Assembly: GCA_030058085.1 (NCBI GenBank)
Contig: JASGTU010000035.1
Location: 1 to 63,562, forward strand
Length of the DNA: 63,562 nt
DNA from: Chloroflexota bacterium
GTDB lineage: Bacteria; Chloroflexota; Anaerolineae; Caldilineales; Caldilineaceae
Reading direction: 5' to 3'
Positions 6,393-59,756 of the stretch are shown here, piece after piece. Below the pieces are notes generated by a model. The model was not told where the DNA came from, made no database searches, and was given only the letters and a program-made list of their open reading frames with translations. The position numbers were made by a program, and so were the translations under genes. Within the stretch, counting starts at the first letter, position 1, and the number at the start of each line of letters is the position of its first letter.

Positions 6393-7694
6393 ATGACGAT
6401 CAAGCGAAGTAAAGGGGCCGAGGACGGCGCATTTCCTGCCGGCGCCGCGCTGCGTAGATTCGACGAATGGCGGCACCGGCGCGGGAGACTGTTCGGCATC
6501 CTATTGATGGCTTCGACGTTGGTCGGCATCGTGGCGCTGACAGCCTTGATTGTGTCGATCGTCAACGACTCGTTCGGTTATGTCGCCGTTCAGAATGAGC
6601 GCGATCCGCAATCCCTGGTTGCGGAGGTTGTGGGACAGGGCGCGTCCGTCAGCCCCGAGGCGACCTTGGCCGATCTGGACAAGGATGCCCTGGTGCGCAT
6701 CCTTGCTTCCGGCGTTTCTGCGGGCCGCATGCGCGCGCTGGAGGCGTGGCAGCCGATGGCCGAACGGACGCGCGAAGACGTGTTGGACCTGGTTGTGGCC
6801 GAAGTTGTGCGGCCTACAATCGTGCGTTCGTGGTCTTTTTCTGATTCGTTGTTCCGCAAGGCGGACATCGAGACGGCTGTGGCAGATATGGCGGGCGCCG
6901 AACTGGAGTGGCGCAACTGGGTGTCGTGGGATTTCGTCACTTCGCCGCAAAGCTCCAACCCGGCGGTAGCCGGTGTGCGTACGGCTATCCTGGGCTCGTT
7001 GTGGGTTGTCATCATCTGCATGCTTTTCGCGGCGCCGCTGGGTATCGGTACAGCGGTGTATCTGGAGGAGTATTCAAACCGAAATTGGTTCAGCAGCCTG
7101 GTGGACACCAACATCAACAACCTGGCCGGCGTGCCGTCGATCATTTACGGCTTGTTGGGGCTGGCGATTTTTGTGCGAGCCCTGGAACCGCTAACCAGCG
7201 GGGCCGTGATCGGTGCATCTGACCCGACGACGGCGAACGGACGCACTACGCTCTCCGCCGGGCTGACGCTGGGGTTGTTGACCCTGCCGCTGATCATCAT
7301 CAACGCGCGTGAGGCGATCCGCGCCGTGCCGCCGTCGTTGCGCGAGGCCAGCTACGGCCTGGGCGCCACGCGCTGGCAAACGGTGTGGAGCCACGTGCTG
7401 CCCAACGCCATCGGCGGCATTCTGACCGGTTCGATCCTGGCGGTCTCGCGTGCCATCGGCGAGACCGCCCCGCTGGTTGTGGTGGGCGCGTCGACCTTCA
7501 TCACGCTGGATCCGAGCGGGCCTTTCTCGAAGTTCACAGTGCTGCCGGCGCAGATCTACCAGTGGACCGCGCGCCCGCAGGCGGAGTTCCGCAACTTGGC
7601 CGCGGCGGCAAGCCTGACGCTCCTGCTCATGTTGATTGTCATGAACTCCGTTGCCGTCTACCTGCGCAATCGCTATAGCAGCCAGAGGATGTGA
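6393..7694 (+). CDS. pstA: Phosphate ABC transporter permease PstA (long form with an N-terminal TM and extracytoplasmic extension)
   Basis: C-terminal permease core with [25 protein letters not shown]. Position between pstC and pstB. Confidence 0.88.
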
Positions 7695-8524
7695 TGATGC
7701 TCAAACTGGATTCGACGGTGATGAAGGCGGACCAATCCGCCAATGGGACCCCGCCGGACGGCGAGTTGTCGATTGTCGCTCGGGACCTGAACGTCTACTA
7801 CGGGAACTTTCGCGCCGTGAAAGACGTCAATCTGGCGATCCCGCGCAAACAGATCACGGCGATGATCGGCCCTTCCGGCTGCGGAAAGAGCACCGTCCTG
7901 CGCTCCTTCAACCGCATGAACGACCTCATTCCCAGCGCACGCGTCGAGGGCGAGGTGATCTTTAACCGCCAAAATATCTATGCGCCGGAGATCGACCCGG
8001 TGGAGTTGCGCCGGCGTGTGGGCATGGTCTTTCAGAAGCCGAACCCTTTTCCCAAGAGCATCTACGACAACATCGCTTGGGGCGCCAAGATCAACGGGTT
8101 TCACGGCGATATGGACGACCTGGTCGAGGCGTCGCTGCGCAATGCGGCGCTGTGGGACGAGGTGAAGGACAAGCTCGACCAGAGCGCGCTGGGCCTTTCT
8201 GGCGGGCAACAGCAGCGGCTGTGCATTGCGCGTGCGATCGCCGTCCGCCCCGACATCATCCTGATGGACGAGCCGTGTTCGGCGTTGGACCCGATCGCCA
8301 CGCTGCGCATCGAGGACTTGATGCACGAGTTGACGAAAACGTATACGATTATCATCGTGACGCACAACATGCAGCAGGCCGCGCGCGTGTCTGACTATAC
8401 GGCGTTCTACATGGTCGACGACAGCCGCACCGGTAGCCTGGCTGAGTTCGGGCCGACTGAACAGATCTTCACGCGGCCCAAGAACAAAGCCACAGAGGAC
8501 TACATAACGGGGCGCTTCGGATAA
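7691..8524 (+). CDS. pstB: Phosphate ABC transporter ATP-binding protein PstB
   Basis: Walker [10 protein letters not shown], signature LSGGQQQRL, Walker B IILMDEP. Start overlaps the pstA stop (ATGA). Confidence 0.95.
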
Positions 8525-8687
8525 AGCGATAGCGGGGCAGCCGATAGGGGCGCGCCACAATGCCGCAACCCCGGGCTGCGCGCCGGTCGGGCTGCGATTG
8601 CGCTCAACCCCGGCTCAGGCTACAATAGCATGAACTCCGCAAGATTGCCGCTGATTGGCGCAGCGAATTGGAAGGGACGGCTGTTCA

Positions 8688-9374
8688 ATGGTGACACGCA
8701 TCCACTTCACGCGTGAACTGCAACGATTGCAGGACGAGATGATCATGTTGGGCAGCATGGTCGCCGAAGCGATCCAGGACGCGGTGCGCTCCTTGCGCGA
8801 GCGCGACCTGGAGACGGCGAAGCGTCTGATCAAGTATGACCGCACGCTCAACGCGCGCCGCTTCGAGATCGAGCGAGACACGCTCGTGCTGCTCGCCACA
8901 CAACAGCCGATGGCGGGCGATCTGCGCTTGCTTGCCGCCATCCTGGAGATCTCCACAGAACTGGAGCGCATGGGCGACTATGCCAAGGGCATCGCGCGCA
9001 TCACCCTTATGCTGGGCTTGGAGCCGATGGTGAAGCCCACGCCCGAAATACAGGTCATGGCGGACCGTGGCACGGATATGATGCGCCGCGCGCTGGATGC
9101 ATTTGTCAACCGCGACCTGGAAGCGGCAAAGGCGATCCCGCTAGAGGACGACGAGATCGACGCCATGTACAACAAGGTGAACCGGGAGTTGGTCACGACG
9201 ATGATGGCGCACCCGGACCGCAGCGACCAGGCCAACTATATGTCCTGGGCGGCGCATAACCTGGAGCGCTTCGCCGACCGTGTGACCAATATCTGCGAAC
9301 GCATCATGTACACGATCACCGGCGAATTTATGGAGTTCGATGCGGAAGAGCCGGGGATGAGCGGCATCCACTAG
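8688..9374 (+). CDS. phoU: Phosphate signalling complex protein PhoU
   Basis: Two PhoU repeats (LERMGDYA, LERFADRV). ATG at 8688 with an upstream GGAAGGGA RBS. Confidence 0.9.
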   Translation: MVTRIHFTRELQRLQDEMIMLGSMVAEAIQDAVRSLRERDLETAKRLIKYDRTLNARRFEIERDTLVLLATQQPMAGDLRLLAAILEISTELERMGDYAKGIARITLMLGLEPMVKPTPEIQVMADRGTDMMRRALDAFVNRDLEAAKAIPLEDDEIDAMYNKVNRELVTTMMAHPDRSDQANYMSWAAHNLERFADRVTNICERIMYTITGEFMEFDAEEPGMSGIH

Positions 9375-9399
9375 CGCACTTAAGCAGGTTGAACCGACG

Positions 9400-9435
9400 G
9401 CGTGGCGGGGGCGCGGCCCTCGTCACGCTTTTCTT
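9400..9435 (+). terminator. Rho-independent terminator of the pst-phoU operon
   Basis: 12-bp GC-rich stem GCGTGGCGGGGG/CCCTCGTCACGC (two G.U pairs), 5-nt loop, then TTTTCTT. Confidence 0.65.
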
Positions 9436-9604
9436 ATTGGCCATTTCCCCGTACTGCAAGTCCAACTCAGCCTCTGAATGAACCGAAAAGCCCCGGAAAA
9501 CCCCTCTGCTGGCCGATCTGACTGCTTTGCAGCCCGCGAGTCACAAAGATACTTGACATTATTCGTACCTAAATGGGCATATTATCGTCAACTATTAGTG
9601 AGAA

Positions 9605-11458
9605 GTGAATGTCGAGCTGCAATCCAAAATTAGGGAACTGCGTTTGGAAGAAGGACAGAATCTGGTCGGCAACCCGTATATCGTCGGCCGTTGGGTGCGG
9701 GGTGCGGATCACTACGACCGTAAAAGCCTCATCGAGTACTTGCTCGACGCCCAGGACACCGCTTTTTGGGTAGTCGGCACGCGGCGCATGGGCAAGACAT
9801 CGCTCCTGCGCCAGTTGGAATACCTTACCGACGACGAAAAGTCCCCTTACGTACCGCTGTTCTGGGACTTGCAGGGGTGCAGCACGCCGCAGGACCTTTC
9901 CGGCGAGCTATACCTGGCGATTGAGGACGTGGCGGAGCGTTTTGCGCGCCTGGACGTGGACACAACGTGTCTGCGAGACGATGACGCCGCCAATATTCTG
10001 CGCCGGCTGGGGCGCGAGACCATGCGCCACGGTCGCGAGCTGCTTCTGCTCGTGGACGAGGCCGAGGTGCTGATCGAGATTGGGCAGACGGAATCGGCCT
10101 GGTTGGCGCGCCTGCGCAAGGCGATGCAGGAAGGCAACCTGCGCGCCGTCATCGCCTCCACGCGGCTGTTGACGCAGCTCACCGACCAGAGCGGAAGCTG
10201 GATGACCAGCCCCTTCTTGTTCGGCTTCCACATGGTCAATTTGTGGACGCTGCACCGCGAGGGGGCGAAGGCGCTGGTGCGCCAAGCCCAGTCAGCGCAG
10301 CCCGTGCAGGCGGATGAGGCGTTAGTCGAGGAGATCTTGGACTACACCAACAGCCACCCCTACCTGGTGCAGTATCTGTGCCAGCGGCTGTTTGCGCCCG
10401 ACGCGAAAGACGGGCGTCTGCGGGCTGTCCAGGAAGACGACCTGGAAGTGGACCAGATGCTGGCGAGCTTTTTCCGGCTGGACTTCCACCGCTTGAGCGT
10501 GACCGAACGCCGTATTTTGCTGGCGGTCGCCGAGGCGGGCGCGCTGGACGAGGACGGTATCCGCGCTCGATTGGCGGACTGTGCGGACGTGCGCCTGATC
10601 TCGCTGCTCCATGCGCTGGAGGAACTGGGTCATCTGCGTCGTTGCGACGAGGGATGGGCCGCGGGCAGCGAGTTCTTGCTGCGTTGGCTGCAGGACAACA
10701 GCCGTCAGCTAGCCGAGGAGCTGCGCAATGAGGATACACCGGCGGCGGGCGGCAACGACGGCGCAGCGGACATGGAGGCGCTGGCGCGTACGCTGGGCAT
10801 CTCCCCGGAGCGCATCCAGGCGTTGGCCGGTCAGCGCATCACGTCCGACGGCGAGTTTTTCGAGGCGATCAAGCGCTTCTTCTACGAGATCCGCTACCTG
10901 GTCGAGCAGGACGACGGCCATAAACTGCTGGTCACGACGACGGCAGACGGCGCGCCGGTCCTGCGCAGCGAAGAGGACGTGCAAATCGCGCTGAAGCATT
11001 GGCTGCGACCCATGTGCCGCGCACTAAACATCCACATGGACCGCGAGGCGTTGACCGGGCGCGGCTTTCTCGACTTCAAGTTTTCCATCGGGCACGACTT
11101 CCGCTGTCTGGCCGAGGTGAAGCTGTTCCACAGCGCTCGGCTCGAAGACGGCATCGGCATTCAGTTGCCCACCTATATGATCGCGGATCGCGCCAGGTAC
11201 GGCATCTACGTGCCGATCTTCCTGGATCCGTCGGGCTACCTCGAAGCGGTCGCCAAGCTGGAGCAACTGGCGGGCGAGCGCGCGCAGAGTCACGGCGTCG
11301 AGATCGGCGTGGTCGACATACGCGCCTGGAAACCGGCGCCTGCATCTAGGGCCGGCGAGATCGAAGAGCGCAACCGCTACTACCCGGATGGCCTGGCAGT
11401 GCGCCGGTCAACAGAGACGGCAGGGCATGGCGAACCGGAACAAGAGAAGGAGGCCTAA
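9605..11458 (+). CDS. AAA+ (ATPase_2/COG1672-like, STAND-like) ATPase with a winged-helix region and a C-terminal RecB-like PD-(D/E)xK nuclease domain
   Basis: GTG start. Walker A GTRRMGKTS and Walker B LLLLVDEAE. wHTH-like segment ERRILLAVAEAG...LEELGHL. C-terminal motifs GFLDFKF ... AEVKL ... QLPTY correspond to D, ExK and QxxxY. Confidence 0.75.
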   Translation: MNVELQSKIRELRLEEGQNLVGNPYIVGRWVRGADHYDRKSLIEYLLDAQDTAFWVVGTRRMGKTSLLRQLEYLTDDEKSPYVPLFWDLQGCSTPQDLSGELYLAIEDVAERFARLDVDTTCLRDDDAANILRRLGRETMRHGRELLLLVDEAEVLIEIGQTESAWLARLRKAMQEGNLRAVIASTRLLTQLTDQSGSWMTSPFLFGFHMVNLWTLHREGAKALVRQAQSAQPVQADEALVEEILDYTNSHPYLVQYLCQRLFAPDAKDGRLRAVQEDDLEVDQMLASFFRLDFHRLSVTERRILLAVAEAGALDEDGIRARLADCADVRLISLLHALEELGHLRRCDEGWAAGSEFLLRWLQDNSRQLAEELRNEDTPAAGGNDGAADMEALARTLGISPERIQALAGQRITSDGEFFEAIKRFFYEIRYLVEQDDGHKLLVTTTADGAPVLRSEEDVQIALKHWLRPMCRALNIHMDREALTGRGFLDFKFSIGHDFRCLAEVKLFHSARLEDGIGIQLPTYMIADRARYGIYVPIFLDPSGYLEAVAKLEQLAGERAQSHGVEIGVVDIRAWKPAPASRAGEIEERNRYYPDGLAVRRSTETAGHGEPEQEKEA

Positions 11459-11461
11459 GGC

Positions 11462-12925
11462 ATGACGACCCCACGGCTGACCAAGACCAAATATCTCAGC
11501 GGGCGACAGTGCCTCAAGCGCCTGTGGTACGAAATATGGCGACCGCACCAGGTGTCGCCGCCTACCCTGAGCCAGCGCAGGATCATGGACCAGGGCACGG
11601 ACGTGGGTGAGCTGGCGCGGGAGCGCTTCCCCGGCGGCGTGCTGATCAGTTCGTTCCGGCGCAAGTCGTTGGACGAGACCGATGAGGCGCTGCGCAACGG
11701 CGCGACGTGTCTGTTCGAGCCGGCCTTCCTCTACGACGACATCCTCGTGCGCTGCGACATTCTGCACAAGCGCGACGACGGCGCCTGGGATATCATCGAG
11801 GTCAAGTCCTCGACCCAGGTCAAGCCCTATCACGTCGAAGACCTGTCCGTCCAGCGGTACGTACTGGAGGGCAGCGGCATGCGCATCGGCGCGGTCAAGC
11901 TGATGCACATCAACAGCCGCGAATGCGTCTATCCCGACCTGAGCAACCTCTTCGCCATCGAGGATGTAACGGACAAAGTCGACGCGGCCGCGGCGCAGTT
12001 GGGCGACAACCTCAAGGCCATGCGCGACGCGTTGCGCCGCAAACAGGAACCGGCCATCTTCATTGGGACGCGCTGCGATAAGCCCTTTCCCTGCCCGCTC
12101 AAGCGGCTGTGCTGGCGGCATGTGCCGCGTGAGTCTATCTTCACCATCCCGCGGCTGAGCGATGACAAGATCGATGATCTGGCGGCGCGCAACATCTTGC
12201 ATGTCTGCGACGTGCCCGCAGACTTCCCCCTTACGCCGGCTCAGCGGGACTATGTGGAGATGCAGCGCGGGGGCCAGCCGGTCATCCGCCTGGAAGGCAT
12301 CCGCCATCTGCTGGCGAAGTTGGAACGGCCAATCCACTTCCTCGACTTCGAGACCCTGGCTTATGCGGTGCCGTGTTTCGACGGCATGCGCCCCTATCAG
12401 GCGATGCCGTTCCAGTTTAGCTGCCATGTGTTGCACCGCAACGGGCGGCTGGGGCACCGTGAGTATCTGCACGAGGACGAGAGCGACCCGCGGCCCGCGG
12501 TGGCGCGCGCCCTGGTCAAGCACGTCGGGATGACGGGCTCGGTGGTGGCCTACAATGCCGGTTTCGAGCGCAGGGTGCTGACCGACCTGGCGGAAGCCGT
12601 GCCGGCGTATGCCGCCGAGCTGCACTCGATTGCGGCGCGGCTGTGGGATCAGCGTGACGTGTTCCGCCTCTTTTATGACCACCCCGCCTTCCTCGGTTCC
12701 ACTTCTATCAAGAACGTGCTGCCTGTGGTCGTGCCCGGCTTGTCCTATGCGGACTTGGCAATCCAGCACGGCGACGACGCTCAGTCGGTCTGGACAGAGA
12801 TGATTGCCTGCCAGGATGAGACGGCTAAAGCCAAGCTTGCCGCCGACCTGCGCGACTACTGCCAGTTGGATACCTACGCCATGGTCGAGATCCAGCGCGC
12901 GCTGGAGAAGCTGACGGCTAGCTGA
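11462..12925 (+). CDS. DUF2779-type protein: N-terminal Cas4/RecB-like PD-(D/E)xK nuclease with a 4-Cys cluster, plus a C-terminal DEDDy-like 3'-5' exonuclease fold
   Basis: Nuclease motifs CDILHK ... IIEVKSS ... QRYVL. Cysteines at GRQC and CDKPFPCPLKRLC. C-terminal FLDFET, YNAGFERR and YCQLD motifs. AAGGAGG RBS lies inside the end of the upstream gene, with a 3-nt gap. Confidence 0.75.
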   Translation: MTTPRLTKTKYLSGRQCLKRLWYEIWRPHQVSPPTLSQRRIMDQGTDVGELARERFPGGVLISSFRRKSLDETDEALRNGATCLFEPAFLYDDILVRCDILHKRDDGAWDIIEVKSSTQVKPYHVEDLSVQRYVLEGSGMRIGAVKLMHINSRECVYPDLSNLFAIEDVTDKVDAAAAQLGDNLKAMRDALRRKQEPAIFIGTRCDKPFPCPLKRLCWRHVPRESIFTIPRLSDDKIDDLAARNILHVCDVPADFPLTPAQRDYVEMQRGGQPVIRLEGIRHLLAKLERPIHFLDFETLAYAVPCFDGMRPYQAMPFQFSCHVLHRNGRLGHREYLHEDESDPRPAVARALVKHVGMTGSVVAYNAGFERRVLTDLAEAVPAYAAELHSIAARLWDQRDVFRLFYDHPAFLGSTSIKNVLPVVVPGLSYADLAIQHGDDAQSVWTEMIACQDETAKAKLAADLRDYCQLDTYAMVEIQRALEKLTAS

Positions 12926-12993
12926 ACCCGGCGACAAGCCTTTCCCCCGCCTTCATCGTGATTGTTCTTTCCCATCTGTGATGAAAGCTCTCT

Positions 12994-14772
12994 ATGCGTA
13001 TACGAGAAGTGCGTATTTCCGGTTTTCGTTCCATCCCGTTCTGCGCCGATATCGAGACGCCCGACGGCGCCGGCGTGCGGACGGCCAAGGCGGTGCGCAT
13101 ACAGTGGCGCCGCGACGCGTTTCGCTTTCAACTGCCTACGAGACGCAGCGGCGGACGCTCCATGTTGAGCGCCATCATCGGGGCTAACAGCGCGGGCAAG
13201 TCCACCATATTGCTGGCGCTGGACATGGCCTTCGGCAACACGGCCAAGCTGGACGAGGCAATGTTCAACGGCAAGCAGACGGACGAGCCGGTGATCGTGG
13301 AGGTGACGGTGCAGGGCGAGATCGAGCGCCCTAGCCAGTGGCACGCCGAAAACTGCACGCTCAACGGCAAGACGTATGCGCTGACCGTCGCTGCGGTGTG
13401 GACAGCGGCAGGCCGTACGCGCTTCATCCGTCGCGGCGACGGCCTCTATGCCAAACAGACGGCGCGTGACCGCGAACAGCTCGCCGTACTGCTGCCCGAA
13501 TTCCGTATTATCTGGGCGGATAGCCGTCTCAACGACGAGGCAAACCTTGAGAAGAAGAACCTGATCAGCGACTTGATCGACGCCCTGCTGGAGCAAGGAC
13601 AGGCGCAAGAGCTGTCGATCGTCCATCGTATCGACGGGCTGATGCGCGAGTTGCAGGCGCTGGTCGGTCGCGACAACCCGGCGGAGCCGCACTTGTGGCA
13701 GCCGGTCGAGGAGCTGGAGGCAAGCCTGTCGCGTGGCCTGGTGTCGATCACGCCGCAGCGCAGTCGCGTGCGCCTCAATTTGGACCAGAATATCCCGTCG
13801 CTGCGCAGTATCTTCACCCGGGGCGTCATGTCGATCGACAACGGCGTGGAGTTGGCCTTTGACCAGCACGGCCTAGGCTTGCAGCGCTCGTTCGTGGTGT
13901 CGACGCTGCGCACTTGGTGCGATCTGATCCGCGATGCACAGAAGGATTATGTCTTCGCCATCGAGGAGCCGGAGATCTATCTGCATCCCCATGCCACGCG
14001 TGTGCTGCTGAACACGCTGGAGGAGTTGGGGCGGCATGACCAGGTGATCTTCACGACGCACTCCAGCGAGTTCGTCAACCGGGCGCCGCTGGGCAACGTG
14101 CTGACCGTGCAGCGCTGCGACTGCGACAACCGCGTCGCCAGCCGCGTCACGCGGCCGAGTTTGGGCGGCCTGCGCGCCGACGACCTCGCCAAGGTGCAGC
14201 GTTATCTGCAGGAGGACCGCAGCGACATGCTCTTTGCGCGGGCGGCGCTGCTGGTGGAGGGACAAGCTGAGTTGTTCGCCCTGCCCAACTTCGCGCGCAC
14301 GTTGGGGCTGGACCTGGACGGCAATGGGGTGTCGGTGGTCTTTGTAAACGGGCTGGGCAACTTCTACACGTATCACCACATCCTGCGCGCCTTCAACATC
14401 CCCCACGTGATCCTGGTCGACGGCGACGGCAAGCCGCGCGAGCGTCTGCAGGAATACCGCGAGGCGGCGGATGCGGTCTACGTGCTGCCGCAGGATTTCG
14501 AGCAGGCCTTGGCGGATGCGCTCTCGCGCGAGCGGCTGCTCGAGTTGATGAACGAGTGCCTGCGGCGCAGGGGCAAGCCGGAGCGAGCGACCGCGCCGGT
14601 GGGCAAGCGAGCCGCGTCCGAATTGGCCGCGCTGGGCAAGCCGCTGGTGGGTCGCGTGGCGGGCGATATGCTGACGCGCGCCGAGGTGGAGCAAATGGCC
14701 GAGATCGTGGGCGCGCTGACCGAAACCGCGAAGGCCGCAGCGCTAGGCACAGTGGGGAACACGGATCGTTAA
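12994..14772 (+). CDS. OLD-family nuclease (ABC-type ATPase plus C-terminal TOPRIM)
   Basis: N-terminus MRIREVRISGFRSI. Walker A GANSAGKST. Walker B/D-loop FAIEEPEIYLHP. TOPRIM motifs LLVEGQAE and VILVDGDG. Confidence 0.85.
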   Translation: MRIREVRISGFRSIPFCADIETPDGAGVRTAKAVRIQWRRDAFRFQLPTRRSGGRSMLSAIIGANSAGKSTILLALDMAFGNTAKLDEAMFNGKQTDEPVIVEVTVQGEIERPSQWHAENCTLNGKTYALTVAAVWTAAGRTRFIRRGDGLYAKQTARDREQLAVLLPEFRIIWADSRLNDEANLEKKNLISDLIDALLEQGQAQELSIVHRIDGLMRELQALVGRDNPAEPHLWQPVEELEASLSRGLVSITPQRSRVRLNLDQNIPSLRSIFTRGVMSIDNGVELAFDQHGLGLQRSFVVSTLRTWCDLIRDAQKDYVFAIEEPEIYLHPHATRVLLNTLEELGRHDQVIFTTHSSEFVNRAPLGNVLTVQRCDCDNRVASRVTRPSLGGLRADDLAKVQRYLQEDRSDMLFARAALLVEGQAELFALPNFARTLGLDLDGNGVSVVFVNGLGNFYTYHHILRAFNIPHVILVDGDGKPRERLQEYREAADAVYVLPQDFEQALADALSRERLLELMNECLRRRGKPERATAPVGKRAASELAALGKPLVGRVAGDMLTRAEVEQMAEIVGALTETAKAAALGTVGNTDR

Positions 14773-14896
14773 TTGAATCCTAACAAGGCCAACACGCTGT
14801 ATTAACGCGTCCGGCCTATTATGGGCCTAAGCGAATCAGGAAGGACGACCCACAAGGGAGCGGGCCGGATGGTTTGCCCGCACAGACTGTAACACG

Positions 14897-14937
14897 GAGA
14901 GGCCGCATGGCATAGGAAGATTGCTGTGCGGCCTCTC
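14897..14937. terminator. Strong hairpin between convergent genes (OLD on +, CYTH-CHAD on -); a possible terminator
   Basis: Perfect 11-bp stem GAGAGGCCGCA/TGCGGCCTCTC with a 19-nt loop. Only a weak T tract (TGTTTCC) follows on the + strand. Confidence 0.4.
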
Positions 14938-14961
14938 TGTTTCCTTGTCCGGCTGCCAGGC

Positions 14962-16605
14962 CTAGATATGCGCCAGCGCTTCGCCAAGCAGACGCCGGTT
15001 GTCGTGCGCCACGAACGTTCGGTACGCCGCGGGGAACTCGGCCTGAAGGCGCGTGGCCGTGTCGGAGAGGTCCTGCAGACGAGCGCGGATGAGCTTCTCG
15101 TCCAGCCCGTCCTTTTGCCAGGCGAGCAGGCGGCCTCGCTCGACGAAGGTGTCGTTGAATGCGCCGAGGTGATCTTGCATGCGCTTAAGTTGGTCGACCA
15201 GCGCCTCTCCCTCCTTGCCCAGGAGGTGGCGGCTGAACTCCAGGCTGTAGCGCAGGTACTTGCACTCGATGCGCAGGGCGTGCATCTGCTCTGCCGGCGC
15301 TTCGCTCTCCGTTTCGACGAGCGGTTCGTAGGCGCGCACACGGGCGAAGCGCGCCATGATCACGCCGGGCATGACGTGGCGCACCTGCAAAGGCGCCGGC
15401 GCGGCCAGCTTCGCCACAGACCGTTTGACGCCCTTGCCGGGCGAGCGCGTGAACTTGATGAAGGCGGTAAGGGTTGCCGCATGTTGCGGCCCGTCCAGCC
15501 ATTCCAACAGCGCCTGGCGCGCGGCGGCGCGGCGCGCCTGTACGAATTCCTCCAGTTTGCACACGTCGGCTTGTTCCGCTTCGGGCAGGCCGGCGCGGAA
15601 TTCGCCCAGGTTTTCCAGCGCCACATCCAGATCGCGCACGGCGCCGAGTCGCCTGCCCAGACGTCGCAGGTCGGCGAAGGCCGGTTCGATGGCGGAACGC
15701 CGGAAATAGTGGCCGAACAACTCTTGAGCGGTGCGCGCCCTGCGGATGGCGACGCGCATCTCGTGGACGTACTCCGGGTCGTCGCCGATGCGGGCGCCGT
15801 ACTCCTGCAGAACGACCTGCATGATTTGTCGCCGCCAGATCAGACGGCAGGCTTCGGCCATGTGCATGGCGGGCTGGATGTCCGGATTGGCGACGTCTGC
15901 GCCGGGCGCCATCTCCGAGATCGCTTCCAGGGCGGCTTCCAGTTTGGAGGCGGAGCGACGCCGCAGGCCGGCGCGCTTGCCGAGCCGGTCTGCGAGCCTC
16001 TCTAGCTTGGCGACGTCTCCGTCCGGCAGCAATTCCAGTTCCAACTCGCGGAAGCGCGCGGCGGGGGGAGAGCCGTCGGCGTTGGCGCCGCGTTCATAGA
16101 CGCGCACGTCGTCCAAGCTCAATTCGGCCAAGGGCGCGTTTTGCTTGGTGGCTTTGCGTTTGCCTGCGGCTTGTTGCACGAGCCGTTGGAGCCGCGTTTG
16201 GCGCAAGGTGACGACCGGGCGCAACTTCCGACTGTCCGGGTTATGCGCGGCGACAAGGCCGCTTAGATCGGCGGAGCAGTGCGCCAGATAGGGCGGCTTG
16301 CCCGTCGCAGCGTCTACCGATTCCTCGCGCTCGATGCGGTCGTAGAGCGATGTGTTGCGGCGCGCTTCCAGGCTTTTGGCCGTGACGAGTAGGCGTTCGC
16401 CTGACCGGCGTGTGCGCAACGCCAGGCCGCGACGGATCAGGTCGAAGGAAGGCGTATCAAAGTAAACGTCGACGGTCTCGGCCGTGTGCGGCGACAGGAG
16501 TTGATAGCCGGGGGCGAGCGTTGCGCTGACGGCAAAGCGGTCGACGGTTTTCTGGTTGAGAATGGCGAATTTCGCTTCAGTCTCGTGCGGGTCTGGTAGG
16601 GGCAT
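14962..16605 (-). CDS. CYTH (triphosphate tunnel metalloenzyme) plus CHAD domain protein
   Basis: N-terminal ExExK motif (ETEAKF). CHAD-type helical region (HEMRVAIRRARTA, LGAVRDLDV). The Met at 16605 avoids overlap with the upstream kinase. Confidence 0.8.
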   Translation of the reverse strand: MPLPDPHETEAKFAILNQKTVDRFAVSATLAPGYQLLSPHTAETVDVYFDTPSFDLIRRGLALRTRRSGERLLVTAKSLEARRNTSLYDRIEREESVDAATGKPPYLAHCSADLSGLVAAHNPDSRKLRPVVTLRQTRLQRLVQQAAGKRKATKQNAPLAELSLDDVRVYERGANADGSPPAARFRELELELLPDGDVAKLERLADRLGKRAGLRRRSASKLEAALEAISEMAPGADVANPDIQPAMHMAEACRLIWRRQIMQVVLQEYGARIGDDPEYVHEMRVAIRRARTAQELFGHYFRRSAIEPAFADLRRLGRRLGAVRDLDVALENLGEFRAGLPEAEQADVCKLEEFVQARRAAARQALLEWLDGPQHAATLTAFIKFTRSPGKGVKRSVAKLAAPAPLQVRHVMPGVIMARFARVRAYEPLVETESEAPAEQMHALRIECKYLRYSLEFSRHLLGKEGEALVDQLKRMQDHLGAFNDTFVERGRLLAWQKDGLDEKLIRARLQDLSDTATRLQAEFPAAYRTFVAHDNRRLLGEALAHI

Positions 16606-16642
16606 GGCGATTGGCCTCGATGCGCGCCGGGATAACCAAGCG

Positions 16643-19141
16643 CTAAGAATCTTGCCGCGTAACGGGAGAACGGGACAGAGTAAGCGACTGCAGGGCGTCG
16701 TCATCCGGCGCTTTGGGCAGCAAAACGTCGAAGCGCGTGCCCTTGTCGATCTCGCTGCTCACAGTAATCTTGCCGCCGTGGATGTCGACGATCTCTTTGA
16801 CAATCGCCAGGCCGAGACCGGTGCCGGGGATATCGTCCGGCTGGCGATGGTTGCCGCGATAGAAGCGCTCGAAAAGATGGGGCAGATCTTCGGGCAGGAT
16901 GCCGATGCCGCTGTCTTCCACGGTGAAACGCACCATGTCTGCGCGATCGGTCTGAGCCGTGCTGACGCGCACATATCCGGCGCGCGTGTAGTGCAAGGCA
17001 TTGGCTACGAGGTTGGTGACTAGCTGCGAAAGCTGGTTGATGTCGCCGTTGACTAGGGGCAATTGCGGGTCAGGCGAAAATGCCAGTTGAATACCGGCTG
17101 ACTCGGCCTGCGGCTGGTGCAAGGCGACGATCTGGGCGGAGACGGCGTTGAGGTCGGTGGGTTCGACCGTCAACGCCTGGCGCTGCGCAATCTCGATGCG
17201 CGAGAGATTGAGGATGTCGTCGACCAGTTGGCCAAGACGCTCGACGCTGATCTGGAGCATGGATTCGTATTGAGCGCGCTTGTCGGCTTTGCCGCGCTGC
17301 AGCAAGTGCATGTAGAGCTTGAGGTTGCTGATGGGCGTGCGCAATTCGTGCGAGACATTCGAGACAAATTTGGATTTCAGCTGGTCGAGTTCAAGCAGCC
17401 GTTTATTCGCTTCGGCCAGTTCTCGGGTGCGTTCGGCCACGCGCAGTTCCAGGTCTGCGGCATAGCGTTGGATCTCGGTGTAGAGGTCGGCGCGGTGGAT
17501 GGCGTTGGCGGCCATATCCGCCATGGCGAGGAGGGTGCCGAGCGCCCGATCTGTGATCGGCTCGTCCCGGCCGATCCAGAGCACGCCGACGCAGCGGTGT
17601 TGGGCCATGAGGGGGACAGCGGCAACTGCGGTGGCATCGCCCAGGAAGCGCGTCAGGTAGTGCCGGTTGTCCTCGCGCACGAAATTGTTGACATAAGTGG
17701 AGCCACTTTCGATGACATAGGCGGCGGCTTGTTCGGGCGTTAGGCGGCGGCCCGTCATGTAGGCGTGTTCGCCTGCAGCCAGTTCGACGGTGACTTCGCC
17801 GCTGTCTGCATCGGTAGTCAGGCAGAGGGCGCCTGTCAGGTTGAGCGCCGACATGATCTGGTCGAGGACGATGGGCAACATCTCGGCACGTGTAGCGGCT
17901 TTGCGCAGAGAAGCGGCGACGCTGAGCAGCGCCTCGCGCTCGCTTTCGACGCGACGACGCTCGGTGATGTCGCGCTGCATGACGGCGTAGTTGATGATAG
18001 CGCCGCTGCGGTCGCGGATGGGAAAGACACTGATCTCTATCTCGCACTGCATGCCGGATCGACAGCGACAGCGCGTCAAACCCGACCAGGGGATGCCCGC
18101 CGCAATCAGAGAGCGATAGTGGTTGCAGAAGTCGTCGGTGTAGATGGCGCGCAGGTCGGGCAGGGATTGCCCGAGGATATCCGCCGCGCGACAGCCGGTC
18201 ATCGCCTCGAATGCGGCGTTGGCGTAGACGATGAGCCCGTGTGTATCGGTGATGAGAACGGTTTCCACGGCCTGTTCCACCACGGTGGCAAGACGGGCGA
18301 TCTCCTGTTCGGCGTGCACGCGGTCGGTGAAGTCGCGCGACACGGCAAGGACGGAGCGAATGACGCCGTCGGCGTCGAATTCGGGCACGAGATGGGCATC
18401 GAAGCTGCGCATTTCCTCGTAGAAGGGCAGGTCATACTCGATGCGCACAGCCTCGCCTTTCTCGAAGACCTGTGCCAACGAGCGACGCCAGAAGTCCATC
18501 AACTCATGCGGAAAAGGCGCCTGGTCGATGGGCGCACCCAGGTATGCTTCGGGCGTTCCGCCGGTGATGCGCTGGACGGAGCGGTTGGTGTAGATGTAGC
18601 GCAGGTCGCGATCGAAGCGGCTGATCATGTCGGGCGAGTTTTCGGCCAGCGTACGGAACATGACCTCGCTCGCCTGTAGGGCGAGTTGGGTGCGACGCAG
18701 GCGCGCGGCCACCTGGATGCGCGCCAGTAGTTCACGGCGGCCTACCGGTTTGACAACATAATCGTCGGCGCCGGCTTCCAGCCCGCTGACGCGGTCGTCT
18801 TCGCTCGTCTTCAAGGCCGAGAGCATAACCACATACGATGTGGCAAACTCCGGCTGCTCTTTGATGCTCCGGCAGATGTCGCCGCCGTCCATGTCTGGGA
18901 GGACGCGGTCGAGCAAAACGATGTCGGGCCTTTGGTCCCAGAGGATTTGCAGGGCGGCTCGTCCTGTCGCGGCTTCGAGAATGCGGTAGCCTGCTTGGCT
19001 CAGGATGTGGCTATAGAGGCGCAGCAAGCTGGGCGAGTCCTCGACGATCAAAATGGAGATGGGCGCATCATCTGCGCCGGATGGTGAGTTCATAAGGCGG
19101 CTGTCGATTTCCGAATGCGAAGACGCACGAGATGGTTCCAT
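16643..19141 (-). CDS. Hybrid sensor: N-terminal receiver, two PAS domains, GAF, HisKA and HATPase
   Basis: Receiver ILIVEDSP ... LLDRVLPDMDG ... KPV. PAS-like repeats. H-box FVSNVSHELRTPI. G-boxes EDSGIGI and GTGLGLAI. Confidence 0.88.
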   Translation of the reverse strand: MEPSRASSHSEIDSRLMNSPSGADDAPISILIVEDSPSLLRLYSHILSQAGYRILEAATGRAALQILWDQRPDIVLLDRVLPDMDGGDICRSIKEQPEFATSYVVMLSALKTSEDDRVSGLEAGADDYVVKPVGRRELLARIQVAARLRRTQLALQASEVMFRTLAENSPDMISRFDRDLRYIYTNRSVQRITGGTPEAYLGAPIDQAPFPHELMDFWRRSLAQVFEKGEAVRIEYDLPFYEEMRSFDAHLVPEFDADGVIRSVLAVSRDFTDRVHAEQEIARLATVVEQAVETVLITDTHGLIVYANAAFEAMTGCRAADILGQSLPDLRAIYTDDFCNHYRSLIAAGIPWSGLTRCRCRSGMQCEIEISVFPIRDRSGAIINYAVMQRDITERRRVESEREALLSVAASLRKAATRAEMLPIVLDQIMSALNLTGALCLTTDADSGEVTVELAAGEHAYMTGRRLTPEQAAAYVIESGSTYVNNFVREDNRHYLTRFLGDATAVAAVPLMAQHRCVGVLWIGRDEPITDRALGTLLAMADMAANAIHRADLYTEIQRYAADLELRVAERTRELAEANKRLLELDQLKSKFVSNVSHELRTPISNLKLYMHLLQRGKADKRAQYESMLQISVERLGQLVDDILNLSRIEIAQRQALTVEPTDLNAVSAQIVALHQPQAESAGIQLAFSPDPQLPLVNGDINQLSQLVTNLVANALHYTRAGYVRVSTAQTDRADMVRFTVEDSGIGILPEDLPHLFERFYRGNHRQPDDIPGTGLGLAIVKEIVDIHGGKITVSSEIDKGTRFDVLLPKAPDDDALQSLTLSRSPVTRQDS

Positions 19142-19496: not shown

Positions 19497-20708
19497 GTGA
19501 TGAGCCAGACCGGGAAATTGCGCATCGCGTACTTCTTGGAAGGGATGCCGGCAAGCGGCGTGGAGACGAGCACGAGCCTGACGGCGCATGCCTTGGCGAA
19601 GGCCGGACACGCCGTCACTGTGTTTACGCCGTGGGTGCGCAGCGACCGCGCCGCTCGCGCCGACGACGATGACGGACGCGTCGAATTCTTTCGCCTGCCC
19701 AGGTTTCGCTTGCCCAGCGACCAGGAAGTCTATTGGAGTATGCCGGTCAGCGTGAGCGTGACGACGAAATTCGGGCGCGCGCACTATGACGTCATCCATG
19801 TCCATGCTTCGACGGTAGTATGTGCGCTGGCTTGGCAGCTTTCACGGCTGTTCAGTGTGCCGGTGGTCTATACCTACCATACGATGTCGAAGGAGTATAC
19901 CCACTACTATCGCCGCTTTTTCGGGCCGGCTGATCTGTGGCTGGAATCGGTTGTGGAGCATTATGACCGGCTGATCTGCAACCGGGCGCGGGCTGTAGTA
20001 GCGCCTTCGCACAAAGCCGCCGCGTACCTGGAGCGCCTGGCGATTGAGCCGCCGGTGTTTGTCATTCCCAACGGCGTCGACGAGCGGCGGTTCTATCCGG
20101 GGCAATCCGATTACTTGCGCGAGCGGTTCTTCCTTCCGGACACAGCGCGCATCCTGCTCTTTGTGGGCAGGCTTAACCAGGAGAAGCGGCCGGATGCCGT
20201 CTACGCAGTCTTCCGGCGTCTCGCCCGTTGGCGCCCTGAGCTGCATCTGGTGATGGCCGGCGCGGGGCCGATGGAGGCCGCGTTGCGCGCACAAGCCGCC
20301 CGTGAAGGGCTGGCATCGCGGGTACATTTTTCCGGCGTTGTTCCCTACGCGATGATGCCGGAGGTCTACCGGTCGGCCGATCTGTGGCTGTCGGCGTCGA
20401 CAAGCGAGGTGCACCCGATGGCGGCGCTGGAGGCCGTGGCGTCGGGGCTGCCTGTGGCGGCGCTGGCGGATGACGCGCTGCGCGGCGTGGTGGAGCATGG
20501 CGTCAACGGCTTTGCTGTACAGGATATCGACGCGTTGGTTCAGGTCGCGGGCGAATTGCTGGATGATACGCAACTGCGCGCGGGGATGGCCGCTGCGTCG
20601 GCGGAACTAGGCCGCCGGTATCGCGTCGACGCGACCGCCGCGCGTCTGGCGGAACTATATGGCGACGTGCGACGATGGGCCAAACTGAGGCCAGAACTCG
20701 CCGCGTAG
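19497..20708 (+). CDS. GT4-family (GT-B fold) glycosyltransferase
   Basis: N-terminal GG-like VETS segment. C-terminal EX7E region (SEVHPMAALEAVASGLPV). Confidence 0.8.
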   Translation: MMSQTGKLRIAYFLEGMPASGVETSTSLTAHALAKAGHAVTVFTPWVRSDRAARADDDDGRVEFFRLPRFRLPSDQEVYWSMPVSVSVTTKFGRAHYDVIHVHASTVVCALAWQLSRLFSVPVVYTYHTMSKEYTHYYRRFFGPADLWLESVVEHYDRLICNRARAVVAPSHKAAAYLERLAIEPPVFVIPNGVDERRFYPGQSDYLRERFFLPDTARILLFVGRLNQEKRPDAVYAVFRRLARWRPELHLVMAGAGPMEAALRAQAAREGLASRVHFSGVVPYAMMPEVYRSADLWLSASTSEVHPMAALEAVASGLPVAALADDALRGVVEHGVNGFAVQDIDALVQVAGELLDDTQLRAGMAAASAELGRRYRVDATAARLAELYGDVRRWAKLRPELAA

Positions 20709-39917: not shown

Positions 39918-39938
39918 GGACCCGCCGAACTAAAGCTA

Positions 39939-40056: not shown

Positions 40057-40057
40057 T

Positions 40058-59750: not shown

Positions 59751-59756
59751 ATAGGT

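Follow-up and report, generated by a model that had tools for sequence, protein, structure and literature searches.

Organization of the three-gene cassette

We analyzed a 63,562-nt stretch of DNA (the window) in which three co-directional plus-strand genes lie between the pst-phoU operon (pstSCAB-phoU) and a CYTH-CHAD gene (Table 1). The gene structure is directly established, since ORF calling places all three reading frames, the 3-nt and 68-nt gaps between them and the AAGGAGG motif at the end of gene 1 exactly where the first-pass annotation had put them. The TAA stop codon of gene 1 (11456-11458) is separated by 3 nt from the ATG of gene 2 (11462), and the ribosome-binding site embedded in the 3' end of gene 1 suggests that translation of the two genes may be coupled. 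The stop codon of gene 2 (12923-12925) is 68 nt from the start of gene 3 (12994), and no terminator was found between these two genes. The start of gene 1 is uncertain; initiation at a TTG at 9644 would yield a 604-aa protein, and a 604-aa NCBI member of the gene 1 cluster fits this TTG.

Table 1. Coordinates of the cassette genes, their domains and the flanking elements in the window
Feature	Positions	Strand	Details
Intrinsic-terminator-like hairpin and T-run	9399..9429	+	14-bp stem with 10 GC pairs, then TTTCTTATTG; ends the upstream pst-phoU operon
Upstream non-coding region, lower G+C	9430..9604	+	presumed promoter/leader of the cassette
Gene 1	9605..11458	+	617 aa; ORC/STAND-like P-loop ATPase, winged helix and C-terminal DUF8371, a predicted PD-(D/E)xK-type nuclease
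Gene 1 Walker A, GTRRMGKTS	9776..9802	+	residues 58-66; >=90% conserved in 32 homologs
Gene 1 Walker B, LLLVDEAE	10043..10066	+	residues 147-154; D151 and E152 invariant
Gene 1 DUF8371 domain	10817..11389	+	residues about 405-595; Pfam PF28130
Gene 2 ribosome-binding site, AAGGAGG	11447..11453	+	within the last codons of gene 1, 8 nt 5' of the ATG
Gene 2	11462..12925	+	487 aa; DUF2779 family, two predicted nuclease domains
Gene 2 N-terminal Cas4/RecB-like nuclease	11462..12136	+	PADLOC Cas4 9.5e-5 and conserved residues
Gene 2 C-terminal DUF2779/DEDDy-type 3'-5' exonuclease (RNase H-like)	12335..12886	+	PF11074 5e-39
Gene 3	12994..14772	+	592 aa; OLD family ABC-ATPase/Toprim nuclease
Gene 3 Toprim nuclease domain	14230..14430	+	residues 413-479; PF20469 1.7e-17; E422, E426 and D476-G-D478 invariant
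Hairpin, 19-nt arms, 9-nt loop	14894..14940	.	inverted repeat I10, separating gene 3 from the convergent CYTH-CHAD gene

The terminator-like hairpin behind pst-phoU indicates that the cassette is a transcription unit separate from that operon. The non-coding region that follows it carries a TTGACA hexamer at about 9554, and a consensus scan of the region upstream of the cassette found no convincing plus-strand promoter. The hairpin downstream of gene 3 is likely a bidirectional terminator that closes the cassette. The window otherwise carries housekeeping genes; around the cassette, neither an integrase nor a tRNA was found, nor any flanking repeats or anomaly in G+C. A CRISPR array lies at 28-430, 9 kb from the cassette, and is absent at related loci; no cas1 or cas2 adjoins the cassette.

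Domain composition of the encoded proteins

The first-pass annotation described the gene 1 product as an AAA+/STAND-like ATPase fused to a RecB-like nuclease. The ATPase part of this description holds, and the best structural matches are small archaeal ATPase_2-family proteins (2qen, E=2e-11; 2fna, E=1e-8) together with ORC/Cdc6. At the sequence level, the match to ATPase_2 (PF01637) falls below the Pfam cut-off (23.2 versus 33.2 bits) and that to AAA_22 is barely over its threshold. The C-terminal domain was considered as DUF234 (PF03008) and this assignment was rejected; DUF234 was not detected in gene 1 even at E up to 10, and Pfam assigns DUF8371. DUF8371 is an uncharacterized domain with a conserved nuclease signature (E...D...ExK...QxxxY), represented in gene 1 by the invariant residues E456, Q460, E481, D490, E504-x-K506 and Q520-xxx-Y524, and its core is predicted to be alpha-beta-beta-beta-alpha-beta. 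Profile searches and fold searches against PDB and BFVD gave no significant match for DUF8371; the nuclease part of the description is thus a prediction from these motifs and the predicted secondary structure.

Gene 2 was correctly read as a DUF2779-type protein (PF11074, E=5e-39) that combines a Cas4-like Fe-S nuclease with a DEDDy exonuclease, an assignment for which we drew on the family literature (PMC13621843, PMC3985635). In the N-terminal part, a weak PADLOC match to Cas4 is accompanied by four invariant cysteines (C17, C205, C211 and C217), a putative Fe-S cluster, and by conserved D99, E113-V114-K115, Q131 and Y133. The exonuclease domain has invariant D295, E297, E369 and Y466-xxx-D470, and an RNase_H_2 match is found in the ortholog at locus L009. 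The DUF2779 protein of JCVI-syn3.0 (MMSYN1_0389) is the same fusion of Cas4-like and DEDDy nucleases, but has two cysteines where gene 2 has all four. Unlike solo Cas4/DUF2779 proteins, the gene 2 clade is always preceded by gene 1.

The assignment of gene 3 to the OLD-family ABC-ATPase/TOPRIM nucleases is borne out by matches to AAA_15 (8e-23), OLD-like_TOPRIM (2e-17) and the PADLOC model 'Old' (3e-47), and by invariant G63-K69-S70 (Walker A), Q297-R298, E324-E325-P-E327 and H356. The best solved relative is the Class 1 OLD of Thermus scotoductus (PDB 6P74, E=4e-20). Like the Class 1 proteins P2 Old, 6P74, Vibrio cholerae OLD and E. coli YbjD, gene 3 has the ABC-ATPase plus Toprim architecture with all OLD catalytic residues, and its size is within the Class 1 range, whereas it carries about 30 additional residues ahead of Walker A. 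Many PADLOC GajA models also match gene 3 (best 2e-42).

The domain identities and intact catalytic motifs are observed directly, and the catalytic residues are invariant in all six enzymatic modules. The cassette encodes two NTPase modules and four predicted nuclease modules, in line with the first-pass count.

Linkage across genomes and the exchangeable third position

Full-length gene 1 was found at 13 loci among 118 matching stretches. The sample comprised 18 distinct gene 1 lineages with <90% gene 1 identity between them, and all belong to Caldilineales (filamentous Chloroflexi). In all 16 lineages that could be evaluated, gene 2 lies directly after gene 1, with about 44-58% amino-acid identity, and OLD occupies the third position at 9 of the 13 evaluable loci. 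Gene 1 and gene 2 form a strictly conserved unit, the cassette DUF2779 proteins are one clade, and at least three alternative modules can take the third place, OLD most often. The three genes are conserved neighbors within one bacterial order, gene 1 and gene 2 in every evaluable lineage and OLD in most evaluable loci. Fortuitous adjacency of three unrelated genes, which the first-pass annotation named as a refuting outcome, is highly improbable and is effectively refuted by this lineage survey. Each family also exists without the others, and DUF2779 and OLD relatives do occur alone; gene order is nevertheless maintained in many divergent genomes, none of the evaluable loci had gene 1 without gene 2, the two adjoin with a 3-nt gap and an embedded ribosome-binding site, and the trio recurs in nine lineages.

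At the other four evaluable loci, OLD is replaced by an unknown gene pair with an EAD1 adaptor or by a CHAT protease neighborhood. Three of them (L009, L013 and L139) have the order gene 1-gene 2-X-Y, where Y carries EAD1 in L009 (PF19955, 5e-16) and L139; a patatin gene is added after X-Y in L139, a single case, and a defense dGTPase follows in L013 (PADLOC 7e-99). The fourth (L140) has an unrelated third gene, and the second gene after DUF2779 encodes a CHAT protease. A NACHT-FGE protein follows in L011. The third position appears to behave like an effector slot, filled by OLD, by the X-Y pair with EAD1 or by an unrelated gene in the vicinity of CHAT.

This exchange also bears on a second reading, in which the gene 1-gene 2 module and an autonomous Class 1 OLD are independent units travelling together as a mini defense island. 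OLD is missing from those four cassettes with unrelated genes in its place, the closest solved relative of gene 3 is a stand-alone protein, Class 1 OLDs act alone (PMC12392090, PMC13261556), and gene 3 is spaced less tightly from gene 2 (68 nt here, about 2-140 nt at other loci) than gene 2 is from gene 1. However, the cassette-type OLD clade (>=52% identity) occurs only downstream of gene 1-gene 2 wherever the context is readable, in contrast to Class 1 OLDs, which are single genes in variable neighborhoods. Two OLD homologs picked from the gene 3 matches, blind to gene 1, both lie in trios, and at least 17 contig sizes are common to the gene 1 and gene 3 match lists. The lack of a terminator between gene 2 and gene 3, the slot-like third position and a gene order that stays unbroken while both flanks are rearranged also speak against independent units, which we regard as a possible but rather doubtful explanation.

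Most OLD-type copies occupy the phoU...CYTH-CHAD interval, as in the window. At related loci, phoU and gene 1 are 0.3-6 kb apart, with unrelated genes in between, and some loci have additional ABC-transporter genes ahead of CHAD; the trio is intact in both situations. Because a single order contains the cassette and most of its OLD-type copies share a locus, much of its conservation reflects one origin and vertical descent, and the conserved linkage therefore derives from essentially one ancestral event.

The stable site between pstSCAB-phoU and the CYTH-CHAD gene in many genomes, the native G+C, the lack of mobility genes and the absence of cassette homologs from the viral contigs searched would fit a housekeeping or stress-induced module for DNA repair, recombination or nucleic-acid turnover, possibly linked to phosphate starvation and without involvement in conflicts with phages or mobile elements. 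Repair enzymes often contain Cas4/RecB-like, DEDD and Toprim domains, and neither DUF2779 nor OLD is restricted to defense: in JCVI-syn3.0, a minimal Mycoplasma cell, DUF2779 is quasi-essential (PMC13621843), and the archaeal class 5 OLD Cran1 has a cell-cycle role (PMC12796447). We nevertheless consider this reading unlikely. The terminator insulates the cassette from phoU, and full-length gene 1 was not found in at least 12 complete Caldilineaceae chromosomes, in which the scan showed only a shorter ATPase paralog. The replacement of the third gene by an EAD1-tagged protein, or by patatin or CHAT neighbors, is a hallmark of conflict systems (PMC7159879).

Relatives of all three components also recur in defense islands and plasmid accessory regions. 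The sister OLD clade adjoins MmeI-type R-M, PLD-SNF2/DUF1156/DUF499, TIR-pentapeptide arrays and a type ISP enzyme. DUF2779 relatives adjoin BREX, HicAB, a NACHT NTPase gene (overlapping DUF2779 in L143) and dGTPase, and on plasmids a GHKL ATPase and PLD nuclease. DUF8371 proteins are found in a methyltransferase-helicase-GIY-YIG operon, beside SIR2, and on plasmids beside integrase and toxin-antitoxin genes. The cassette in the window does not itself lie in a defense island; such settings are seen for more distant relatives of its components. Conserved linkage and module exchange are direct observations, while a defense role is what family precedent and these neighborhoods suggest.

Comparison with named systems and proposed function

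PADLOC, Pfam and NCBIfam recognize only the OLD protein as a defense component, in agreement with the initial view that the trio matches no named system. The canonical OLD partners are indeed absent, as the cassette has neither a GajB-like helicase nor a reverse transcriptase, and retron RNA and split AriA/AriB are likewise missing. It also lacks a component for telling self from non-self, for example a methyltransferase. The cassette resembles Gabija in placing an OLD nuclease in an operon with a partner acting on DNA ends. However, GajB is UvrD-like and the cassette has no UvrD/PcrA/Rep helicase gene, its OLD partners being an ORC/STAND-like ATPase-nuclease and a DUF2779 double nuclease, and GajA structures are only distant matches to gene 3 (E about 5e-5).

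The ATPase and winged-helix fold of gene 1 resembles NLRs and Avs4, here joined to a predicted nuclease, and STAND genes also lie near the cassette or DUF2779 elsewhere (L011 and L143). In contrast to Avs, gene 1 carries its effector at the C terminus and lacks a sensor array of the TPR/LRR/WD40 type, and none of the PADLOC Avs models match it. Archaeal-type ATPase_2 proteins with DUF234, a domain with a restriction-endonuclease-like fold, share the plan of a 2qen/2fna-fold P-loop ATPase, a winged helix and a C-terminal PD-(D/E)xK-like domain, but gene 1 has DUF8371 in place of DUF234.

The EAD-coupled conflict systems of Kaur, Burroughs, Iyer and Aravind (2020, PMC7159879) likewise combine a constant NTPase-centered core with rapidly exchanged effectors. 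That study describes the EAD1 adaptor in NTP-dependent conflict systems of multicellular bacteria, Chloroflexi among them, and the likeness extends to EAD1 on a cassette variant component, patatin or caspase-like (CHAT) neighbors and a filamentous Chloroflexi host. The gene 1-DUF2779 core, however, does not correspond to any core in that work (vWA-MoxR, GAP1 GTPase and others), which mentions neither Toprim nor Cas4, and the OLD-bearing form in the window has no EAD.

Most likely, the cassette is a new defense system built around an OLD nuclease. More specifically, we favor, with moderate confidence, a chromosomal, Caldilineales-restricted, three-gene nucleic-acid-degrading conflict system against phages or mobile elements, in which gene 1 and gene 2 form the core and the effector can be exchanged. 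OLD proteins are established defense effectors (PMC10568477, PMC12392090), and by family precedent OLD in the third position would be a nickase or 5'-3' exonuclease. Gene 1 may be a nucleotide-dependent switch or sensor with one cutter, and gene 2, with its Cas4-like Fe-S nuclease and DEDDy 3'-5' exonuclease, could work on DNA ends of either polarity. A trigger would change the nucleotide state of gene 1, of OLD or of both; DNA would then be nicked or cut by OLD, by the DUF8371 domain or by both; and DUF2779 would resect the resulting ends, so that invader DNA or, if the response is abortive, host DNA is destroyed. We infer the order of these events, DNA versus RNA as the substrate and any physical complex. 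The closest mechanistic analogy would be Gabija, in which a nick is made and a partner then acts on the ends.

Domain content of the cassette

The three open reading frames of the cassette lie on the plus strand, exactly where the first-pass annotation had placed them, and the AAGGAGG motif that it had reported in the end of gene 1 and its 68-nt second gap were likewise recovered. Judged by motifs, its tally of two NTPase and four nuclease modules holds. Because hairpins lie at both ends of the cassette and no terminator was found in the 68-nt gap between genes 2 and 3, the cassette looks like a single transcription unit of its own. The start position of gene 1 is uncertain, and an alternative TTG start at 9644 fits a 604-aa NCBI member of the gene 1 cluster, located on a contig of 63,562 bases and thus as long as the window.

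Coordinates of the cassette, of related loci in other genomes, contigs, and plasmids (L handles), and of other features in the window
Feature	Sequence	Position	Strand	Remark
Gene 1 ORF	window	9605-11458	+	617 aa; TAA stop 11456-11458
Gene 2 ORF	window	11462-12925	+	487 aa; ATG start at 11462
Gene 3 ORF	window	12994-14772	+	592 aa
AAGGAGG	window	11447-11453	+	within gene 1
Terminator-like hairpin, strong	window	9399-9429		downstream of phoU
Hairpin, 19-nt arms	window	14894-14940		between gene 3 and convergent gene
Schlafen-matched part of gene 1	window	~11057-11302		residues ~485-566
phoU to CYTH-CHAD interval	window	9375-14961		
CRISPR array	window	28-430		
GT4 glycosyltransferase	window	19497-20708		
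ZMP/ZTP riboswitch	window	39936-40063		47 bits
purH	window	40179-41711		
6S RNA gene	window	59755-59943		52 bits
X-Y pair	L009	13379-15692		replaces OLD; homologous across the three loci
X-Y pair	L013	13388-15506		replaces OLD
X-Y pair	L139	11430-13764		replaces OLD
GT4 gene	L139	6292-7620		
Gene 1 paralogue	L084	7001-8320		
Gene 1 paralogue	L085	7001-8341		
Split gene 1 and DUF2779 homologues	L140	1995-5445		long-read metagenome contig
DUF2779 locus	L143	4147-8473		Aliarcobacter cryaerophilus plasmid pM830MA
DUF2779 locus	L144	5064-9458		Planktothrix agardhii plasmid p2
DUF8371-protein locus	L151	1-6449		Paenarthrobacter plasmid pA
DUF8371-protein locus	L152	691-6425		Rhodobacter plasmid
DUF8371-protein locus	L145	5801-8413		Nitrosospira plasmid 1

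Sequence matches to the ATPase part of gene 1 are weak, with AAA_22 at 29 bits and AAA_35 below its cut-off. The combination of ATPase_2 (PF01637) and DUF234, which the first-pass annotation had proposed to look for, was rejected by sequence: ATPase_2 reaches 23.2 bits against a Pfam cut-off of 33.2, and DUF234 is not detected in gene 1 even at E values up to 10. The Walker A (GTRRMGKTS, residues 58-66) and Walker B (LLLVDEAE, residues 147-154) motifs are almost invariant in a 32-sequence alignment. The best structural matches of the AlphaFold model of gene 1 (pLDDT 75) are the archaeal Walker-type ATPases 2qen (E=2e-11) and 2fna (1e-8), followed by ORC/Cdc6, plant NLRs, and Avs4; the fold is NLR/Avs4-like but nearer to ATPase_2 and ORC/Cdc6. 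The Walker motifs and this 2qen/2fna/ORC-like fold indicate that gene 1 is, by prediction, an ORC/STAND-like P-loop ATPase with a winged helix and without a repeat-type sensor. Its homologues give weak nSTAND1 and nSTAND2 Pfam matches, no sensor repeats were found in gene 1 itself, and it matches none of the PADLOC Avs models. Neither its sequence nor its architecture identifies gene 1 as an Avs protein.

The C-terminus of gene 1 (approximately residues 405-595) corresponds to DUF8371 (PF28130) in precomputed Pfam matches, which also record the domain in full-length gene 1 homologues; the local Pfam copy did not detect it in gene 1. Among diverse members, E456, Q460, E481, D490, E504-x-K506, Q520-xxx-Y524, and S581 are invariant, and a confident AF2 model of the domain (pLDDT 84) places D490 and the ExK motif on consecutive strands in an alpha-beta-beta-beta-alpha-beta core. 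These motifs and the predicted secondary structure fit the PD-(D/E)xK/RecB-like pattern that had been proposed for gene 1; a significant fold or profile match did not emerge. Foldseek returned only non-significant matches to RPB5, Can2, EndoMS, and BstYI in the PDB (best E=0.012) and non-significant matches in BFVD (best 0.002), with phage 'restriction endonucleases' among the non-significant matches, and hhalign against the Cas4-like domain of gene 2 was not significant, with the ExK strand alone aligned. Judging from motifs and model, we consider DUF8371 likely to be a nuclease. A profile of diverse DUF8371 members also weakly matches the nuclease core of human Schlafen 12 in the PDB (E=0.004), and SLFN14 more weakly, with the ExK strand opposite 'VEIK' of SLFN12. 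That DUF8371 might cut RNA rather than DNA is a lead from this match, which is not significant enough to rely on.

Gene 2 is clearly a member of the DUF2779 family (PF11074; 133.8 bits against a cut-off of 23.3). According to published analyses, members of this uncharacterised family join a Cas4-like nuclease to a DEDD(h/y) RNase-H-fold exonuclease, and the family is quasi-essential in JCVI-syn3.0 (PMC13621843, PMC3985635). Both modules named in the first reading of the sequence are recognizable in 22 homologues: C17, C205, C211, C217, D99, V114-K115, and Q131 are invariant in the N-terminal part, where at least 90% of the homologues share E113 and Y133, and D295, E297, E369, Y466, and D470 are invariant in the exonuclease. 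Since the four cysteines and the D..ExK motifs are present, gene 2 is Cas4-like in chemistry only; identity with a CRISPR Cas4 was rejected, as the match to Cas_Cas4 (PF01930) stays at 15.7 bits, below the cut-off of 22.7, and no cas genes adjoin gene 2.

Gene 3 carries an N-terminal ABC-type ATPase of the OLD family with Walker A, Walker B, a signature-like motif, and an H-loop (AAA_15, 8e-23; AAA_21, 3e-20), and an OLD-like_TOPRIM domain (PF20469, 1.7e-17, residues 413-478) that aligns with the Toprim domains of 6P74, 6NJV, and 6NK8. Its catalytic residues are all invariant in 22 homologues, namely G63..K69-S70, Q297-R298, E324-E325-P-E327, and H356 in the ATPase and E422, E426, and D476-G-D478 in the Toprim domain. 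PADLOC matches it to 'Old' (3e-47) and GajA (2e-42), and the closest solved structure is the Class 1 OLD of Thermus scotoductus (E=4e-20). By its sequence, gene 3 truly belongs to the OLD family, as had been claimed.

Linkage and setting of the three genes

A scan with the gene 1 alignment over one genome per GTDB species found 13 full-length gene 1 loci, all in Caldilineales (Caldilineaceae, Litorilinea, and Ca. Fredericiella), and more than 60 loci with a shorter, ATPase-only paralogue of ~435 aa. In at least 12 complete Caldilineaceae chromosomes the scan found the paralogue only, and the cassette is therefore accessory within this family. Further loci were added from metagenome contigs and exact-protein look-ups, and for linkage counts gene 1 was clustered at 90% identity into 18 lineages. 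The supposition that homologues of the three genes occur as neighbours is borne out: gene 2 directly follows gene 1 in all 16 evaluable lineages, at gene 1 identities of 44-58%, and the third gene is OLD in 9 of 13. The coupling of genes 1 and 2 is strict. Two OLD homologues chosen from the gene 3 match list alone both proved to lie in trios, and at least 17 contig sizes are common to the gene 1 and gene 3 match lists. The trio also stays intact despite changes in its flanks, with 0.3-6 kb of unrelated genes between phoU and gene 1 and ABC-transporter genes preceding CHAD in some loci. Each of the three families is also found alone, but their chance adjacency here is excluded. The cassette DUF2779 proteins form one clade apart from solo relatives in a neighbour-joining tree without bootstrap, and most OLD-type cassettes sit in the same phoU...CHAD interval; the linkage therefore essentially arose once and was kept over deep divergence.

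The third position of the cassette is shown to be exchangeable. It is occupied in three of the 13 lineages by a homologous pair of genes, X and Y (L009, L013, and L139), and in one (L140) by an unrelated gene followed by a CHAT protease gene. X (~400-510 aa) has no Pfam match, and Y (~280-320 aa) has a C-terminal EAD1 adaptor in L009 (5e-16) and L139, with none detectable in L013. The gene after X-Y encodes a NUDIX protein in L009, a defence dGTPase in L013, and a patatin in L139. Absence of OLD from four of the 13 cassettes and the looser spacing between genes 2 and 3 would suit a gene 1-gene 2 pair merely travelling together with an autonomous Class 1 OLD; we regard this as unlikely, as OLD proteins of the cassette-type clade were seen only together with genes 1 and 2. 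In L140, the gene 1 and DUF2779 homologues are each split in two ORFs, which reflects either cassette decay in that lineage or assembly frameshift errors.

The cassette in the window is preceded by genes for a PhoR-like kinase, pstS, two pst permease genes, pstB, and phoU, and is followed by convergent genes for a CYTH-CHAD protein and a hybrid histidine kinase. The remainder of the window is core chromosome, including uvrC, cytochrome oxidase, purH with a ZTP riboswitch, and 6S RNA. The G+C content of the cassette is native, and no integrase or bounding repeats were found around it; the repeats there are short, imperfect, and scattered, with none at both ends. Given the native G+C, the housekeeping neighbours, and the absence of mobility features, the cassette is here a solitary insert in a phosphate-homeostasis locus, outside any defence island. 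The first-pass annotation had proposed to look for defence-island siting across genomes; in this window, pst-phoU and CYTH-CHAD flank the cassette. A phage or prophage origin was rejected, as there are no viral-contig relatives in IMG/VR, no tRNA in the window, and no end-marking repeats.

A housekeeping module for repair or turnover would be an alternative: the chromosomal site is stable, DUF2779 is quasi-essential in Mycoplasma, and the OLD protein Cran1 acts in the cell cycle (PMC12796447). This seems quite improbable to us: the cassette is absent from sister genomes, and the variants with EAD1, patatin, or CHAT proteins fit such a role poorly.

The phoU to CYTH-CHAD interval is a variable region in Caldilineaceae (window, L004, L006, L007, L008, L141, and L142), with both flanks phosphate/polyphosphate-related. 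Inserts upstream of the cassette differ by genome and comprise aminotransferase, MR_MLE enolase-superfamily, and membrane-protein genes, and a sugar ABC-transporter set is inserted downstream.

The ~435-aa paralogue (L014-L079, L084, and L085) is ~50% identical to the ATPase half of gene 1, lacks DUF8371, and turned up in over 60 species-representative genomes of Caldilineales. It was rejected as a cassette member, as its conserved context is a different one and never includes DUF2779 or OLD. The gene order at L084 and L085 is a 1000-aa Reg_prop protein, the paralogue ATPase, a DegT aminotransferase, and a GT2 glycosyltransferase; the Reg_prop protein of L085 weakly matches nSTAND6, and several paralogue loci have a second weak gene 1-like match ~1 kb upstream.

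Relation to described systems and proposed function

OLD nucleases are now sorted by partner into five classes, and the context of gene 3 matches none of them, whether stand-alone, GajB, retron, AriA/AriB, or Sulfolobales membrane-protein partner. The canonical partners are absent, as the first-pass annotation had it: no helicase ORF lies at 7000-18000 of the window, no reverse transcriptase domain occurs in the cassette or its flanks, and the ATPase and Toprim domains are not split. Assignment to Class 1 (stand-alone) was rejected, as genes 1 and 2 lie upstream in every locus with readable context, and assignment to Class 2 (Gabija), as gene 3 is flanked by DUF2779 upstream and by the convergent CYTH-CHAD gene downstream. 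Class 3 (retron) was rejected for lack of the reverse transcriptase; Rfam gave no family at gathering score in or near the cassette, and the retron Eco8 effector model scores 25 bits on gene 3 against a cut-off of 250. Against Class 4 (PARIS), gene 3 is a fused single protein of 592 aa, and the AriA models cover its ATPase half only. Class 5 (Cran1) is described as a Sulfolobales clade whose operon includes a membrane protein (PMC12796447); by its bacterial host (Caldilineales) and its partners, gene 3 falls outside it.

The trio also maps onto no named system, in agreement with the original claim. PADLOC and NCBIfam gave only P-loop-level matches for gene 1 (mad8, 6.5e-4) and only Cas4-level matches for gene 2, and models of MADS, PtuA, and retron systems matched gene 3 far below their cut-offs; membership of a named system was rejected. 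In the literature searched, we found no paper tying DUF2779 to OLD or to any defence system, and none that mentions PF28130 or ties it to either. A 2026 survey of STAND proteins (PMC13581612) contains no mention of OLD, Cas4, Chloroflex, operon, or exonuclease.

From sequence, the cassette is a candidate OLD-containing multi-gene defence system with new partners. We tentatively read it, at somewhat less than even confidence, as a new multi-component defence system and a new OLD context class, with OLD as an interchangeable effector of a gene 1-gene 2 core; if true, this would give DUF2779 and DUF8371, two widespread families, their first functional setting. Gene 1 would then act as a nucleotide-dependent switch, whose winged helix might bind nucleic acid and whose own nuclease might also cut. 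OLD could contribute ATP-regulated nicking or 5'-3' degradation, by analogy with Class 1 and 2 OLD proteins (PMC7049728, PMC10568477, PMC12392090), and DUF2779 could resect both strand polarities from the ends made. Either invader DNA would be degraded in a targeted manner or the infection would be abortive. Neither a methyltransferase nor any other self-marking component was found in the cassette. The closest analogy is Gabija, in which OLD nicking is coupled to a partner acting on DNA ends. The exchange of OLD for an EAD1 protein plus patatin or for CHAT is similar to the EAD-coupled NTPase conflict systems of multicellular bacteria (PMC7159879).

An ATPase-nuclease plus a double exonuclease would constitute a sixth context for OLD and provide a natural experiment on how partners license its activity. 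DUF2779 occurs across bacteria and plasmids and is quasi-essential in a minimal synthetic cell, with no known role, and DUF8371, with ~1,400 cluster representatives, is entirely uncharacterised; an operon binding both to OLD yields testable hypotheses for each family. OLD, EAD1-patatin, and CHAT at one operon position illustrate how effector modules are swapped in a filamentous phylum that has received little study. The cassette ranges over uncultured or little-studied Caldilineales only, and its interest for specialists in phage defence and OLD is tempered by this narrow taxonomic range and the single evolutionary origin.

Wider families and other features of the window

Relatives of gene 2 at ~50% identity are stand-alone genes in three large genomes, one of them a Leptolyngbyaceae cyanobacterium, with HsdR/HicAB, an HD protein, or a BREX locus as neighbours. 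On the Aliarcobacter plasmid (L143), a NACHT protein with DUF4145 precedes DUF2779 with a 14-nt overlap, and an SF1-helicase-like pair and a dGTPase lie downstream. On the Planktothrix plasmid (L144), the order is a GHKL HATPase_c_3 protein, DUF2779, and a PLD nuclease, set within an ORC-like/helicase cluster. A further plasmid has a PD-(D/E)XK gene, DUF2779, and a WYL regulator in succession. Homology of the Planktothrix and Aliarcobacter ATPases to gene 1 was rejected, as they are of GHKL and NACHT types, and DUF8371 was found in neither; an NTPase followed by DUF2779 may be a recurrent theme on unrelated plasmids.

Our own DUF8371 domain profile matched 1410 cluster representatives. Among the 118 top hits in which the domain is complete, a P-loop precedes it in only 3, and the gene 1 fusion is therefore a minority architecture. 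The common form is ~475 aa long, has no P-loop, and carries a conserved N-terminal domain without a Pfam match. It occurs in three plasmid settings (L151, L152, and L145): in an overlapping DNA methyltransferase-DEAD helicase-GIY-YIG-DUF8371 operon, beside a 1262-aa SIR2 protein, and, on a small conjugative plasmid, beside integrase and toxin-antitoxin genes. The common form looks like a separate uncharacterised defence-associated family. The next OLD clade, at 41-50% identity, adjoins an MmeI-type enzyme, PLD-SNF2/DUF1156/DUF499 genes, TIR-pentapeptide arrays, a type ISP enzyme, and a reverse transcriptase. These neighbour surveys therefore indicate that all three component families keep company with defence genes and mobile elements.

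A CRISPR array ~9 kb upstream of the cassette has at least six 37-nt repeats (GTTGCACCCGTCCTTCGGGGCGGGTGAGGATTGAAAC, Rfam CRISPR-DR9) and runs off the 5' end of the window, so that its cas genes, if any, lie beyond the window. None of the 152 related loci fetched contains the repeat, so the array was rejected as part of the cassette system. Among the other features of the window are the 6S RNA gene and the ZMP/ZTP riboswitch, the latter directly 5' of purH. The GT4 glycosyltransferase gene has a secondary match to Pfam 'GT4-conflict' (5.5e-10), and a GT4 gene similarly lies just upstream of the L139 variant cassette, which is probably a coincidence.
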